A stretch of DNA of 63,866 bases, the filler included, from Licmophora abbreviata (Eukaryota), in assembly GCA_900291995.1 (NCBI GenBank). It is 12 parts of 12 records of this genome, joined end to end, with 100 filler letters (N's around TTAATTAATTAA, not from the genome) between each part and the next. Parts side by side here need not be neighbours in the genome. Positions count along the whole stretch, not along the records: positions 1 to 4,959 come from OLMU01000817.1; 11 more parts are not named here. One strand, given 5' to 3'. Below are positions 2,142-9,277 of this stretch, piece by piece. The notes beneath the pieces are model-generated. The model did no database searches, was not told the origin of the DNA, and worked only from the letters and a program-made list of their open reading frames with translations. Each line of letters starts with the position of its first letter. Position 1 is the first letter of the stretch. Both the position numbers and the translations under genes were made by a program.

Positions 2142-3575
2142 CTATATTCTATCGTGGCATACCAGTCGCTCTAGAAACATTCTTCGGGCAGCATCGGTCA
2201 AAATTTCGTCCAGCGCCAGGTCTTCCATCATTACCTTGGCCTGCTTCTCATCGAGGTATTCGTTTGCCACCCAGCTTGCTTTGCGAATGCCCGCTGCGCC
2301 CAGCCTGTTCACCTCTTGACCATCGTTACGCTTATGTTGCCCAATATGAGGTCTGACACGATGGGTTAAATCGGAAAGGTCATGAAAACCCAGCACATTC
2401 TCTACTAGCGGTCCGGCATAGCCAAGCCACTCCATTGCCAAAACGAGATGAAACTTGGCTACAGTGTCCAGCGCAACGCCCATCATCTCTCCTCGTTTGT
2501 CACCAAACTCATCTTCTTCAAAGACTTTCTTGAGGCCTACTCTGGTCGCATCCACAAACGTCTCTGTATACACATTGTACAAGTCCGTTCGTTTCTTCCA
2601 CCATTCCGTAACGTTCTTAATCTTACATCCACGGTCTTCGATACACTCGAATCGAAATTGCGACAGAGCTCGGTCTAGCGGCCGTCGAAACGACGTACAA
2701 AACACCGCCGGCAAGTCCAAGTGCCGATGCGCAAAATTGTCCCACTCGTTTCCGGCGATGCGATAGCCAGATTCCTTCATACGTTTCGTGATATTGGCAT
2801 TGTCCCAGTGATGTAGATATCCAGCTCCTTTGCGCTTACTCCACTCCATGTCGGGCATGCAGTAGTACTGTGGAACGGCCTTCTTGGGAAGATTTTTCTC
2901 GGCCAGACTGCAAAAGTTGGTGCCACCTGCCTTGCGCAAATGCTGAAAGACAATGAAGTTTTCGCCCCTTCGGAAGTCGTGTACCTTGGCAAAGTCTCGC
3001 TGGTCGGGAAGTGTGATTCGCTCTGTGGGCTTTGGGCACGGAAAAAAGTTTTGGACAAGCGACAAATTCAAGACGCCTTGTTGTTTGGATTCAGTGTCGA
3101 CAAGAGCTTCTTCAAATCGTCGCACGCCAAAAGGGTCAATCTCCTCGAGCGTTTGTAAGATCTCTTCTGTGGGCAATGAGGCTAGCAGCATAGCGTAATC
3201 CTTCCATCCCTCGAACGATCGACCGTCGTTGTGAACTGCGGCATATGTCTTCTTCTTTGGAGGGGGTGCGTTGGCTTTCGTCTTGTGCCTTGCGACTGGA
3301 GCGTCCGGTACCTTGAGGTGTATGACCTGATACTTTTCTTCATTCATGTTGTGATTCTTCAGAACGTAAAAGTTTAGCAGGATGGTGCTCAGAAGGACAA
3401 GAAGTGGCACCAGCATGAGCAAGAGCTTTGTTGGACCGCAACGTGGTGCTTGGGACGATGCTGACTGCCCCAATCGACGGATAGGACTCGACGATGGACC
3501 TTTTCTTGTCTCCACATGGCCATTATACTGTCTTTGCATTCTACCCCCTTGTCCTCTTGCGTCTACGGCGAGCAT
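2142..3575 (-). CDS. Type II membrane (Golgi-type) sulfotransferase-like protein
   Basis: Single N-terminal TM anchor, 5'-PSB-like motif 'FQHLRKAGGT' and 3'-PB-like motif 'SFRRPLDRALSQF'. Confidence 0.7.
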   Translation of the reverse strand: MLAVDARGQGGRMQRQYNGHVETRKGPSSSPIRRLGQSASSQAPRCGPTKLLLMLVPLLVLLSTILLNFYVLKNHNMNEEKYQVIHLKVPDAPVARHKTKANAPPPKKKTYAAVHNDGRSFEGWKDYAMLLASLPTEEILQTLEEIDPFGVRRFEEALVDTESKQQGVLNLSLVQNFFPCPKPTERITLPDQRDFAKVHDFRRGENFIVFQHLRKAGGTNFCSLAEKNLPKKAVPQYYCMPDMEWSKRKGAGYLHHWDNANITKRMKESGYRIAGNEWDNFAHRHLDLPAVFCTSFRRPLDRALSQFRFECIEDRGCKIKNVTEWWKKRTDLYNVYTETFVDATRVGLKKVFEEDEFGDKRGEMMGVALDTVAKFHLVLAMEWLGYAGPLVENVLGFHDLSDLTHRVRPHIGQHKRNDGQEVNRLGAAGIRKASWVANEYLDEKQAKVMMEDLALDEILTDAARRMFLERLVCHDRI

Positions 3576-3952
3576 CGTCTCGTCATTCTCGCCCCCTGCT
3601 GCTGTGTCTTGACGCCGCCGATTGCAGAGTCAGTCCGAGACAGCAGTATTTTATATTTTATCATCTTCAATCTCTTTTCCGTGAGGTCTGTCTGCCACTC
3701 CTGACCGCCTTACAACATGAGTTGATCCGAGAGCGTCTGCATGTCTCTCCGTGTCCTATTCTTGGCGCGCGCCAGTCAATCCTCGTAGGCATTCGTGTTC
3801 GATGTTTTCATAAGTGTCATTGGGGTATGTGTCTTAGACCATAACGAATACGTAAATTTCTTGCCAGTCCCTCGCCGAACCAAAAAGTGTGCTAGCTCGT
3901 CATCGATTTGACGGACGGCAACGAAACGCAGGACTGTCCACACGACGGCACG

Positions 3953-4656
3953 ATGGAGTATGATTCTTGTCCTGCTATTGCACCCTTCCTGGGGTACATG
4001 GGAGTAGCGGCTTCAATTATATTTGCCAGTGAGTATTCTGAAATTCCAGTGAAATTAGTCCACGGAATGATTCACTTTCGACCATTCAGTCTTTCACCCT
4101 CGAACTGACTCGCTCACGCCCTGTGTCGTTTTCTCGCTCTGTCATTTTCTCGTTAGATGTCGGTGCTGCACACGGAACGGCGCGAGCAGGGGTCGGTATC
4201 ATGAAATCAGGTATCAAGAGTCCAGAGCTCGTTTGGCGGAACCTCATCCCTGTCGTCATGGCCGGCGTCAATGGTATTTACGGTCTCATTACCGCCATCA
4301 TTCTGATTGGTAGTATTGCAGGCCCCGCAGACGGTGGGGCATACACATACTCACTCTATACCGGCGCAGCACACCTTGCTGCCGGTCTGTGTTGCGGATT
4401 AAGCGGTTTGGGATCGGGTATGTGCATTGGCATTGCCGGTGATGCAGCGGTACAAGCGTGTGGGACGTGGTCGGAATCTACCAAAAAGGTCGTCACTCGA
4501 GGTGGACGCGGTGGCGCAAGGAAGAAGAAGGCAGGTGGAGGAGATAAGCTATTTGTCAGTATGGTGCTGATTCAGGTCTTTGCGGGCAATGTGGCCCTGT
4601 ACGGTCTGATTGCATCCATCCTCTTGAGTCAACAGGTCTTTTACTGTGGCGAGTAA
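3953..4656 (+). CDS. V-type ATPase proteolipid (subunit c) paralog, atypical, 2 exons (3953-4028, 4157-4656)
   Basis: Splicing the GTGAGT...TTAG intron 4029-4156 restores 'APFLGYMGVAASIIFANVGAAHGTA'. Also 'PVVMAG..GIYGLI', 'HLAAGLCCGLSGL' and 'LYGLIA'. The TM4 Glu is absent. Confidence 0.85.
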
Positions 4657-4861: not shown

Positions 4862-6147
4862 CTACGCCGTATGATGATGCGGTTCGTGTGCGCTGAGCGT
4901 AACACCGTCTTCGAAGCGAACCGTTCGGAAGTGAAAGTCCGGTGAAAGCACATCCCACCNNNNNNNNNNNNNNNNNNNNNNNNNNNNNNNNNNNNNNNNN
5001 NNNTTAATTAATTAANNNNNNNNNNNNNNNNNNNNNNNNNNNNNNNNNNNNNNNNNNNNCCTGCGATATAGTCAAGGGCACCACCGAAACGCCTTTCATT
5101 TGAGCAACGCACTCGCATCAACAGAATATTCGGCGGAACACAACAACGACTCCTAGCTAGAGACTCACATTTAAATTCGCACATGGGCGTGACGCGCCGC
5201 GACGCAGCGAAAAGCGCCTCTCCGCGATCATTGGCACCCGACGGCTCGATCAAGTGATCGAACGCCAAAGTCTGCACGAGTTGTTGCACTTCGTCGAGAC
5301 TCAGTTTGACGCGACTCACTTTGGCTTGCACAATCTTTTCGTTGATTTCCGCAACGGTTGCGCCGCGGCCATCATTAATCCGACGCACACAGTGCATCAG
5401 GAATGTTCGCAAGTCGCCAATAAACTGGTGATCGAACTCGAGCTCAGTGTACCATGGTCCACCGGTCAGTTCCTTGGCTGGTGTGAGATTGTAAAGCATA
5501 TAGAGCTTCTTGGCCTTGGCCGTGACAGATTTGACCGGCTTGATAAGGTGGCGACTCTCAAGTGCCTAAGAGCATTAGATGTACGAGCAGAGCAAAGTTA
5601 GATCAGCCAATCAACAGATCTTCCTGTGTCACAGTACTTCTCATACCTTGAGTATCCGATTGAGCTGCTGCTGGGGGATCCCCGTCGAGGACCGAATGTC
5701 TTTAGTCCAGATACCCTTGTCTTCACTTTTTGCCACAACTTGGTAGACCATGCGAGCGGAGACGTCCAATCCATCAAATTTCTCCGCCATCTCATTGCTA
5801 ACGAGCGTATAGAACAGCTCGTCGCCAACCTTGCTCATCACGAGACGTGACTGATGCATGAGTTCGTTGATTATGGGAACGAGCTGGACGTACTCTTGCT
5901 CGGGAAATTTCGCCTTGAGGGTACTATTCGAAACTCCTCCTTCAAAGTCTGGTTCAGAGCACAGCTGAATAAAGCGCCCTTTGAGTCGCTGCTGTTCAAA
6001 GTAGTCATCTCTCGGCGGTGGCGCATCAGGATCTGATTTCACGAAGACGCGGGAAGCTCCCGGCACAATGGAAGAGGTTGCGCGGCTGCGTTTGCGGCCT
6101 GTTGATGCTGGCGCCACTGTGGGTGGACGTTTTCGTACTGGGGGCAT
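4862..6147 (-). CDS. RPC34: RNA polymerase III subunit RPC34/RPC6, 3 exons (6147-5647, 5565-5169, last exon ending 4862 across the N gap)
   Basis: 'VYQVV...KGIWTKDIR', 'KLYMLYNLTPAKELTGGPWY'. Canonical GT-AG introns. The exon phase continues correctly across the gap (CEFK-W-WDVLSPDF...HHHTA*). Confidence 0.85.
4960..5059. other. Artificial 100-nt scaffold linker (N44-TTAATTAATTAA-N44). Identical linkers at 9499, 16158, 22112, 24134, 27650, 32468, 33893, 41062, 48731 and 62638.
   Basis: Identical length and an all-frame-stop core in all 11 gaps. Confidence 0.98.
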
Positions 6148-6529
6148 TTTGGACCTGTTCAACTGAAGAGATGCATGTGTCTTAGAGTCGCCATCGTCAA
6201 GTAGAAAAAGTATGTTCTGTTCTTGCGTGTGATGGTCGGCGGTCGGCGAGGCGCAACGCGGGGCCGCGCCTGGTGGATTCCGAGTTCCATTCACACGTCA
6301 TTCTTTCTTGACGAAACTTCCTGTCACCCGAACAAAGGTATGATAGCTAAGGTGCTAATGGTCGACTCGTATTCGGTATGGGTTGTTGAAAGATTTCTTT
6401 TTAGCTAGATGCGAACAGTCTACAGAATAGTCTGTGATCAATGATAGCGTAATCGCTCTCGCGCATGCCCGTGCCGGGGCAGTCTTGGATTTGCCTAGAC
6501 ATAGCAACCCACTTGCAACGATAGTATGG

Positions 6530-9277
6530 TTACGGAAACGGCAAGCGTTTGCCCTTGTCGATTCCATGGCTTCCAAACACCAGCGGCTTGTACTCGTCAT
6601 CCTTCTCCATTAAAGCTGAATTCTCAAAACGCTTCAACATGCCGCTCTTGCCTTGTATGCGAGCATAGGTGATGTCGCATATTTTGTCACTGTTGAATAC
6701 ACGCCAGTGTTGACCAAAGTACTGGCGATGGAAAGGTACAATGTCGCGGTGGTCCACAAAATTGACGAAGGCGTAGCCTCGGTTGCACCTGTTCTTGAAG
6801 TCGATGGGAAGATAGAAGAAGTCGATCTTTCCTGGACCGTGTCCGTTCTCGGCGAGTTCGGACAGCAGCATGTGCTGGGTATACTTATTGGGGATGTTGC
6901 GAATCATCAAGGACGTTCGAATGTCGTCACCGGTCTCTACGGACGATATATCGAGCATCAAGTGGCGATTGTCCTTTTCTTCGACGCTTGCGACGCGCCG
7001 AGGTGAGACGCCCAAAGCAGGATTGTTTGCACTTCCGCTTGATATGCTCAAATCCGTCGGACGGACGTGCGCATAGTAGGGGACCGCCGATGGGTTGGCA
7101 CCAGGCGGATACTGTGGACGTGTGGGTTGATGTGACACAACGCTACCTGGATGATGAAACGAATGCGGTGCGGGTGCTGCATGCTGCCAGTAGTGCACCG
7201 CATGTCCCTGATTGGGTACCGGCGCAACGTGAACGCCTTGTCCCGGGGGCGGAAGACCGTGTGATATGTACGTCGCGCGGGGAGGGACTTGCATGGTGTG
7301 CTGCTGAGCCACGGTCTGCAAGTTGGCGTCGACCTGTGGGTGTGCAGGATGATAGGAGGCGTGGTTCACGACCATATACGAGTACCTACCGTCTGGGCCC
7401 AGTACAAGCTGAGTCGTCGGTTGAGCGGTCTGTGAGCGATTGGAGCTGCTTGTATCGTCCAGTGAACCTGGCCCGGCTCCCGGCAACGAGTACTGAGCAT
7501 ATCCCGGCTGGGCCTCGGGAGCGGCGACAGCAGGAGACGACGAGGTCGAAGATGGCGAACGCATACCACCGAGGTGTATGCCTGGTGCCGTCGAGGTAGA
7601 GCCAGAAGACGGCATGGACTCATGTCCGATATCTGATGGATGTCTCCCAGCGGCGATAGCCTGACGCCATCTCCCAATCAAGGCAAGCAACTCACGCCCT
7701 CGCCTTCGCACGGCTGGAGACCGCGTTCCGACCTCAACAATTAAATCAGACCCCCATGGCTGGGTACTCTCCAACTCCATCAAGGCCTGTCGTGCGTCTT
7801 GAACGTTGTGGAATTCCGCGATATACCCCGTGCTCCCGTAGGCAGGAGTTTGCTTTCTCAGAGATCGCACTGCCCCATAAGAGGACAGTACGGACGACAA
7901 AATCTCTTCGCCCACTCCGGGTGGGACTTCCGACAAGTGAAGGATACTCTCGTCGTTCGCGGACGACGCATTCAGTGGAACGCAGTACTGAACTCTGATG
8001 TCATCCGCTGGACGATCAGGTGTTGCAAGTCGTTTCAGACAAGACTGTAGCTCCAGAGCGGCGTACTGAGAACTGCGTATATCAAAATAGCAGACAAAAA
8101 TGATGCCGTAGTCTGAAAAATCTGAACGAAATGTCTCCAGTACACCGAATGCCTCGCACGTGGATCTGATGTCGGGAATATACAAGGATGACGAGCGGAG
8201 AATAACCAGTGCCCGGCTCGGCTCCGGGCCGCCCGCGTCCCAAACGAATGGAAGCAGCTCAGACTCGGACCGAAGCTGAGATATATCCAAGGGACGAGAA
8301 GCCGCCCCTGACCCACCCGAGAATGGAGAAGAACGACGTGCCTCCTCTTCTACCGACAATCGTTGCATATCATGCTCCAGCTCATAGTTTGACGGCTGCG
8401 ATAGTGGTGTTCCCGACGTCGCTGGCAAACCTACAAGCTCACCGCGTGGCGCCGACCGTCGGCGGCCCCTGCCTCCGGGCTCCATGACGGTTAGTCCAAG
8501 GTCCTTCGGCGGCAGATTCCGATCGCGAGCAAAGGTATCAAGCGGACGTTCTTCCAGACCGGAAAGTACCGGTGCAACCGGAAAATTCAATGTAGGGCTT
8601 GCTCCGCTGCTTGATTCATCCCTTCCGGTACTACTAGCAGGCTCAGGAGACGACAGAGATCCCTCAACATGCCCAGAACCGACAGCCCCGAAGTGAGATC
8701 GCGAGGGTTTCCCAATCAGCCTCGATGCCGCATGCCGCGATTGCCGTGTATAGCTCAAGTCTCGGCACGCATCAAACGTCTCGTCTACCAATCGTTGCTG
8801 TCCCTCGGGCGATACGTCGCGAGCTTTCTGCTGTTCGCTTGTGGAGTCGTCCATGGACTCCACTAATCCTGTTCCCAAAACCGCCGCCAGATTCGTGAAA
8901 CTCGTAGTCCTTTTGTTATTGTTTCCGTATAGTTGAGGTCCAGTCGTGGCGGTTGATTCCGGTGATTCGTTCCAGAGATATTGATTCACTTTGTGGGTTC
9001 GTTCGAAGATTGGCGGGACGACGTTAAAGCCCGGTGGAGGCGGCGCTGAAAGTGCCCCCGACGTCGACGTCCGAGCGGTGTGACCATGATGGGCCGCCAG
9101 TTCTTCTTGCGTCACGGCCGACGACGAACTCGCCACATCCAAACGAGCTGCAAGGGGGTACAAAGACTCGGGCTTGAGCGTGACACGATTGTTCCCTGTT
9201 GTAGTTATATGACTGGCGTTACTCTCGTGGGGTCCCTCGCCATCGTTTGATGTGCTCCTCCTTCCCATACTCGACAT
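6530..9277 (-). CDS. MEI2: MEI2-like RNA-binding protein (3 RRMs)
   Basis: Diagnostic RRM3 'RTSLMIRNIPNKYTQ...IDFFYLPIDFKNRCNRGYAFVNF...YARIQGK', plus two upstream RRMs ('FVCYFDIR', 'AEFHNVQDA'). Confidence 0.92.
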   Translation of the reverse strand: MSSMGRRSTSNDGEGPHESNASHITTTGNNRVTLKPESLYPLAARLDVASSSSAVTQEELAAHHGHTARTSTSGALSAPPPPGFNVVPPIFERTHKVNQYLWNESPESTATTGPQLYGNNNKRTTSFTNLAAVLGTGLVESMDDSTSEQQKARDVSPEGQQRLVDETFDACRDLSYTRQSRHAASRLIGKPSRSHFGAVGSGHVEGSLSSPEPASSTGRDESSSGASPTLNFPVAPVLSGLEERPLDTFARDRNLPPKDLGLTVMEPGGRGRRRSAPRGELVGLPATSGTPLSQPSNYELEHDMQRLSVEEEARRSSPFSGGSGAASRPLDISQLRSESELLPFVWDAGGPEPSRALVILRSSSLYIPDIRSTCEAFGVLETFRSDFSDYGIIFVCYFDIRSSQYAALELQSCLKRLATPDRPADDIRVQYCVPLNASSANDESILHLSEVPPGVGEEILSSVLSSYGAVRSLRKQTPAYGSTGYIAEFHNVQDARQALMELESTQPWGSDLIVEVGTRSPAVRRRGRELLALIGRWRQAIAAGRHPSDIGHESMPSSGSTSTAPGIHLGGMRSPSSTSSSPAVAAPEAQPGYAQYSLPGAGPGSLDDTSSSNRSQTAQPTTQLVLGPDGRYSYMVVNHASYHPAHPQVDANLQTVAQQHTMQVPPRATYISHGLPPPGQGVHVAPVPNQGHAVHYWQHAAPAPHSFHHPGSVVSHQPTRPQYPPGANPSAVPYYAHVRPTDLSISSGSANNPALGVSPRRVASVEEKDNRHLMLDISSVETGDDIRTSLMIRNIPNKYTQHMLLSELAENGHGPGKIDFFYLPIDFKNRCNRGYAFVNFVDHRDIVPFHRQYFGQHWRVFNSDKICDITYARIQGKSGMLKRFENSALMEKDDEYKPLVFGSHGIDKGKRLPFP

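Follow-up and report, generated by a model that had tools for sequence, protein, structure and literature searches.

The window, by which we mean the whole 63,866-nucleotide stretch of Licmophora abbreviata DNA that was analyzed, carries a V-ATPase subunit-c paralog gene at 3953-4656, running from ATG to TAA in two exons with 191 codons and no internal stops. Exon 2 matches PF00137 with an E value of 1.6e-23, so its likeness to subunit c is not due to chance. The features of the gene are listed below; clades A and B are the two branches of Glu-less proteolipids described in a later section.

3953..4028, + strand: exon 1, coding for residues 1-25 and carrying one further base; the N-terminus, on the luminal side, has the conserved Cys6, and the first half of TM1 follows (tblastn with the full-length homolog P0013 matches 3959-4030)
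4029..4156, + strand: phase-1 GT..AG intron of 128 nt inside TM1; the break is at the same place in many related loci
4157..4656, + strand: exon 2, the remainder of TM1, TM2 to TM4, and the luminal tail with Cys189; stop TAA
4264..4281, + strand: TM2 residues Gly62 (position of the c'' Glu), Asn64 (gained in clade A; in the register of Enterococcus hirae Gln65), and Tyr67 (yeast Y66)
4414..4416, + strand: TM3 Ser112, common to clades A and B, Ala in canonical c; in the modeled subunit-subunit seam
4465..4542, + strand: Lys/Arg/Gly-rich cytosolic TM3-TM4 insert, 24 residues beyond canonical c; DNA matched by sequencing runs X1 and X4
4573..4575, + strand: TM4 Gln165
4585..4590, + strand: Gly169 (GGC), replacing the proton-carrying Glu, followed by Asn170

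Gene structure and local context

Alignment by phmmer with the citrus and yeast c subunits places Gly169 on the essential Glu (yeast E137) with TM4 ungapped. In TM2, Gly62 is at the c'' Glu position and Asn64 lies in the same helix, while Gln165 and Asn170 are both within TM4. The TM3-TM4 loop is 29 residues long compared with five in canonical c, measured alike. The initial annotation had described a TM4 Glu-to-Gly change at 4585, a TM2 without a c''-type Glu, polar Gln and Asn residues in both helices, a basic K/R/G-rich TM3-TM4 insertion, and an intact ORF and intron, and all of these stand. Judged by its sequence and by those of its homologs, the gene is real and is a variant of V-ATPase subunit c that has lost the Glu.

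Four public sequencing runs match 3841-4572 piecewise with only two differences, both of them intronic, and the loop DNA is confirmed by runs from two studies (X1 and X4). Base 4585 is outside these matches, so the Gly169 codon rests on the window sequence together with the homologs. Run X7 matches upstream DNA only. No splice joint was seen in the contigs of the four runs matched within 3841-4572, and the public-run search listed no RNA run containing the window copy.

The gene sits on a contig piece that ends at 4959, and because spacers (N44-stop word-N44) occupy 4960-5059 and ten more sites, genes across spacers are not linked. Upstream are an ALMT/FUSC-like transporter gene (2-2011, +) and a 495-residue ORF without a Pfam match (2142-3629, -); past the spacer are genes for RNA polymerase III Rpc34 (5008-6297, -) and an RRM_2 (Mei2-like) protein (6530-9277, -). 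No second proteolipid is present in the whole window, and V-ATPase families were found neither among the 37 long window ORFs scanned nor among the four neighbor genes. A synteny search with the two upstream ORFs gave no match in 41 related metagenome loci.

Glu-less clades, ancestry, and selection

We classify the Glu-less proteins as a family, with the window gene in one branch, A, and a second branch, B. For clade A, the query was aligned with the best 120 of 1097 matches to exon 2, and Gly169, Gln165, Asn170, Asn64, and Ser112 are each present in 121/121 rows; the conservation of the Glu-to-Gly change and of both Asn residues, which the initial annotation had suggested checking across diatom proteolipids, is thus complete in these rows. 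The clade A loop has a median length of 31 residues (range, 21 to 82; 120 of the 121 rows measured), varies in both sequence and length, and is usually basic, with a median net charge of +4. The named members are from Fistulifera, Ditylum, Helicotheca, Aulacoseira, Licmophora, Fragilaria, Arcocellulus, Extubocellulus, and Minutocellus, several of them transcriptome derived and with the loop retained.

More looped proteolipids were found in a profile-free scan of representatives, and one of these was used as the query for clade B. Among the best 120 of its 3161 matches, the same Gln and Asn are present in all 120, the Glu site is Gly in 64 and Ser in 56, the Asn64 position is Leu in 119 and Met in one, and the loop is nearly invariant and neutral. 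Named members include Fistulifera, Seminavis, Fragilariopsis, Attheya, Odontella, and Triparma retinervis. A divergent clade A locus is that of Parmales sp. scaly parma, whose matches (best 120 of 2057) include Triparma strigata, T. columacea (two), T. laevis, and Phaeodactylum tricornutum; this search yielded 56 new proteins, and after subtraction of 11 fused nematode/dinoflagellate models the Gln/Gly/Asn set is present in 45/45. Among the matches listed, all named A or B members are diatoms or Parmales, the sister algae of diatoms, which bear silica plates. Paralogs also occur within single species, with A and B in Fistulifera solaris and two A types each in Fragilaria crotonensis and Triparma columacea.

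Counts of Asp and Glu in 163 full-length Glu-less proteins are zero for the TM4 window, one for TM2, and five for TM1, and the acid in TM3 is an Asp at the cytosolic end that is present in canonical c as well. A relocated membrane carboxylate is rejected on these counts across the TM windows. An ESM Atlas search returned PF00137 clusters only, and a search for viral copies gave 27 pattern matches, none of which was confirmed.

We note several further aspects of these loci. Two clade A copies lie in tandem on one contig (L019:281-972 and 1614-2283), and in the low-GC loci L038:4840-5632, L040, and L041 a divergent clade A gene is split by three introns. Clades A, B, and C and the diatom type of canonical c all conserve Cys residues near both luminal ends (window 3968-3970 and 4645-4647), and it is possible that this pair forms a disulfide.

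The tree was built from 52 rows (54 minus two that are chimeric or truncated) after the columns of the loop and the traits had been taken out, and its root is placed only among ordinary c. A, B, and a third group, C, each form a clade, and A and B are joined with support of 98/97, or 98/92 after removal of three more shared columns. As A and B form one clade and both are present in diatoms and Parmales, the Glu was probably lost once, before the diatom-Parmales split, with subsequent duplication into A and B. The tree labels Astrosyne and Cyclophora, and the name Pseudo-nitzschia, are what we take to be the completions of partial names.

Clade C (P0325, P0169, P0170, P0171, and P0216), which we take to be diatom from shared motifs, keeps the TM4 Glu and has an acidic insert of 34 to 44 residues in the same loop; its members have two Trp residues in TM1 and a loop charge opposite to that of clade A. 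The haptophyte Prymnesium parvum codes for a protein (KAL1525071, P0242) in which Ser occupies the Glu site, a Gln stands four residues earlier, and the insert is short and basic. It lies apart from A and B in the best tree, but joining it to them is not rejected (p-AU 0.285), so that it may reflect either convergence or a shared origin. A different arrangement is seen in P0185, a fused proteolipid of 485 residues whose TM2-type and TM4-type helices both have a Glu and which has a long insert between TM3 and TM4.

The loop has a pyrimidine share of 0.32 compared with 0.80 at the 3' end of the true intron, is kept in transcriptome-derived diatom homologs, and is retained in 13/41 loci without the TM1 intron. 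That the loop is an unspliced intron is rejected: in-frame GT/GC..AG pairs are present, but their acceptors are purine rich and the transcript-derived proteins keep the loop. The gene models P0474 (P. tricornutum XP_002184835) and P0349 (F. cylindrus) are without the loop; the locus L029:21-533, noted alongside, has the same flanking protein sequence as P0474 and reads through the loop in frame. In public gene models of this kind, the loop may have been deleted as a false intron.

All four Gly codons are used at the Glu site (14/13/10/5) in the 42 sites from the 41 metagenome loci and the window, which, as these loci were picked by motif patterns, is evidence of codon freedom and not of unbiased conservation. 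Between the window and the other 27 of 28 distinct coding stretches, pS is 0.70 to 0.96 and pN is 0.08 to 0.26 with the loop excluded. Among the 14 closest pairs, the eight that are diverged and unsaturated have dN/dS values of 0.013 to 0.051, and one near-identical pair, with very few changes, has a value of 0.35. The family is under strong purifying selection. The initial annotation had named a species-specific or decaying copy as the outcome that would overturn it, and this is not what is seen, as homologs are present in many species with pN far below pS; expression, which it had also raised, is supported for the homologs by their presence in transcriptome assemblies.

Databases label the A and B proteins as ordinary proteolipid subunits, which, with the absence of the loop from some gene models, makes them easy to overlook. 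Diatom V-ATPase evolution was reportedly surveyed by Bussard and Lopez in 2014. That survey and Yee et al. (New Phytol. 225:2411) are outside the literature searched, in which no description of a Glu-less family was found. Term searches of 10.1101/2022.05.26.493626, PMC3478156, PMC5501833, PMC10328945, and PMC13659343 turned up nothing relevant to Glu-less proteolipids, and PMC13403384 mentions the K02155 orthogroup with no paralog detail, its supplement being a genome list.

Predicted structure and comparison with known rotor subunits

The AlphaFold models, one for a full-length homolog (pLDDT 82) and one for window exon 2 (pLDDT 85), both have four helices with V-ATPase c as the best match, and the PF00137 double hairpin with four TM helices is recovered. 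The modeled fold compares to yeast c with a Z score of 16.2 and an rmsd of 1.8 Å over 133 residues, and the modeled TM3 helix continues into the insert. The best PDB match is citrus c (E 1e-29), and the family shares with eukaryotic c subunits (Vma3, ATP6V0C, and VHA-c) the four-helix double hairpin, the Gly-rich packing motifs, Met60, and Tyr67. It differs from them in having Gly (Ser in part of clade B) for the Glu, in the invariant Gln165, Asn170, and Ser112 together with Asn64 in clade A, and in the 24-residue cytosolic insert. Subunit c'' (Vma16 and ATP6V0B) and the fungal c' (Vma11) are likewise paralogous ring subunits, and in the yeast 8:1:1 ring c'' and c' are present in one copy each at set positions (PMC4838861). 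Both of these keep a functional Glu whereas the window protein has none, and by sequence the window protein resembles c (E 1e-29) far more than c'' (best E 5.5e-11).

Gln165 lies a helical turn toward the cytosol from the lost Glu, on the same face by helical period. Asn64, three residues before the conserved Tyr, is in the register of the E. hirae Na+ ligand Gln65, this register being taken from published numbering and the start of a structural alignment; a plasmid search for a bacterial K subunit for direct alignment gave no match. The E. hirae NtpK (2BL2) and Acetobacterium woodii (4BEM) rotors resemble the window protein in fold (Z scores of 13.3 and 12.6) and in the amide at the Gln65 position, but they have a Glu per four helices and the full Na+ ligand set, in contrast to the window protein without a carboxylate. 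Rings with fewer ion sites than hairpins have precedent among Na+ rotors. The window protein has neither the last-helix Glu nor the mid-helix Gln/Glu in the helix before that mark a Na+ rotor, and in place of the first-hairpin motif [STQ][STQ]xxY it reads Val-Asn-x-x-Tyr, in which the Tyr is kept and the Asn is polar, but the Val departs from the motif.

A four-copy model of the homolog P0013, folded with no supplied alignment, scores 0.60 against 0.00 for the best control, although this may reflect likeness to solved c-rings; contact agreement is 93% or more and partner pLDDT is 77 or more. The mark used for the ring score is reached by 21/30 solved pairs and 0/23 single chains (17/29 and 0/30 for eukaryotes). 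In the seam of this model, the Asn170 and Ser112 equivalents lie against TM1/TM2 of the neighboring subunit, including the Gly62 equivalent, and the equivalents of Gln165, Gly169, and Asn64 are not among the listed seam residues, although contact is still possible. The polar gains would thus fall at both ancestral ion-site positions, one intrasubunit and one intersubunit. In the models, the protein retains the c fold and contacts of the ring type, a result that may come from the solved structures.

Ductin, the mediatophore, and the yeast c-ring pore offer a further parallel, with the ring as a pore or docking unit via cytosolic loops (PMC4838861). The proteins of these systems are said to be all but identical to ordinary c, and what they do physiologically is disputed, whereas the family described here consists of dedicated Glu-less genes under their own selection.

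Possible functions of a Glu-less proteolipid

Each proteolipid is known to carry protons on a single Glu that comes to meet the Arg in subunit a (PMC7541076, PMC10352029, and PMC9280200). Having no membrane Glu, the window protein cannot carry protons by this known mechanism, and the earlier inference of a subunit-c paralog unable to do so is upheld by the lack of a membrane carboxylate and by Gly169 in 121/121 rows (query and best 120 of 1097). We regard it as a real and selected proton-blind proteolipid derived from subunit c.

Our preferred reading, tentative and with a probability of about 0.4, is that it is a position-specific subunit of a specialized ring that does not pump. The Glu-less proteolipid would still pack at a fixed position of a c-type ring, with Asn170 and Ser112 in the subunit seam setting the identity of its neighbors, and with Gln165, Gly169, and Asn64 forming a neutral, amide-lined surface in place of the acid site. 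The long cytosolic loop would serve for docking or blocking at the site normally occupied by subunit d and the subunit a N-terminus. Such a ring would combine A with clade B, and perhaps with the looped, Glu-bearing C and ordinary c, and, without pumping protons, would serve an endomembrane as a specialized scaffold or gated pore derived from Vo; that this membrane is the silica deposition vesicle (SDV) would be a guess.

The yeast V-ATPase is tightly coupled, which argues that a Glu-less ring would not pump. At least two Glu-less paralogs per genome, whose newly gained polar residues are invariant and which have the insert in common, suggest an ordered specialized ring over a stray inhibitor, and the occurrence of two or more Glu-less clades in both diatoms and Parmales likewise favors a dedicated heteromeric ring over a lone inhibitor. 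The cytosolic loops of c bind subunit d (PMC9280200), and bare yeast c-rings form pores and dimerize via these loops (PMC4838861). We note, however, that in clade C a comparable insert is found together with the Glu, so that an insert need not stop rotation, which counts against a non-pumping ring.

It is possible, if doubtful, that the protein instead provides blank rotor positions that lower the H+/ATP ratio below 10/3 and so support a steeper gradient, with Gln165 and Asn64 letting the blank slide past the Arg of subunit a. The amides at the old acid site are invariant (121/121 rows, query and best 120 of 1097), ring contacts are retained in the model, and clade C provides looped subunits able to keep the Glu, all of which are consistent with blank positions in a pumping ring. 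Rings with reduced sites, however, still retain one acid per four helices, and loss of a single c' or c'' Glu reportedly kills the yeast pump, as Hirata is said to have found in 1997. Simulated removal of yeast c'' E108 cut a rotation barrier by about 40% (PMC7541076), but each ring Glu is called essential (PMC10352029 and PMC7541076).

We consider it rather unlikely that the protein enters ordinary c-rings and stalls them, or chaperones their assembly, and so adjusts how many pumps are active. A ring with tight coupling would be expected to stall on a subunit that has no Glu, and the insert is located where subunit d and the subunit a N-terminus bind, but a simple poison would need neither at least two distinct paralogs with invariant new polar residues nor the nearly invariant loop of clade B.

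Rotary carriage of a solute that is polar but neutral, silicic acid for example, which would be held in the Gly cavity by Gln/Asn/Ser/Tyr and moved by V1, is improbable. The same low standing applies to a second rotor ring in diatoms and Parmales, built from looped A, B, and C subunits, in which neutral pockets and the V-ATPase motor would move or gate silicic acid into the SDV. We know of no precedent for a rotary carrier of a neutral solute, clade B is without Asn64, a haptophyte Glu-less copy exists, and the window-type protein is not found in the SDV proteome. These points are set against the clustering of polar gains at the two ancestral ion sites, the use of Gln motifs by silicon transporters, and the restriction of named A and B members, among the matches listed, to diatoms and Parmales, both silicifiers. 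The SDV Si importer is itself stated to be unknown (PMC9894196).

The initial annotation had linked the gene to the silica vesicle. The haptophyte copy counts against this link, as does the clade A copy in P. tricornutum (XP_002184835), a species that silicifies little. V-ATPase is present in the SDV (PMC9894196), and the part of the link that stands is that the named A/B range matches the silicifying lineages (PMC10328945). The valve-SDV proteome of Thalassiosira pseudonana (PMC9894196 supplements), however, lists one proteolipid of 16.9 kDa, which is of canonical size and too small for A or B, although c'' is absent from the same proteome, pointing to low sensitivity; further V-type genes are in the sin1 cluster of that study, given by IDs only. 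A silica-vesicle role thus fits the named range, has no direct support, and is a guess.

A change of cation specificity, to Na+ or another ion, as the initial annotation had suggested, is very improbable. Asn64 is at the position of the E. hirae Na+ ligand Gln65, which is aliphatic in H+ enzymes (PMC2359735), but the principal Glu ligand is gone and no membrane carboxylate replaces it, TM3 is without a mid-helix Gln, the next position is Val, and the published Na+ motifs are absent. A pseudogene, an assembly error, or a misaligned Glu can be effectively dismissed, since despite the lack of a read over the codon or a listed RNA run for the window copy, the four Gly codons over 42 sites, the pS of 0.70 to 0.96 against a pN of 0.08 to 0.26, the transcriptome homologs, and the ungapped TM4 reject these at the family level.

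The ring Glu is treated as indispensable in rotary pumps, and here is a natural family that is without it and is kept under strong selection. Diatoms are dated to about 200 million years (PMC10328945), and a Glu probably lost before the diatom-Parmales split, with strong selection since, implies a function that is not the textbook one. The P. tricornutum copy XP_002184835 is amenable to knockout or tagging, and a proton-blind subunit would provide a genetic handle on the disputed question of whether Vo rings have any jobs beyond proton pumping.
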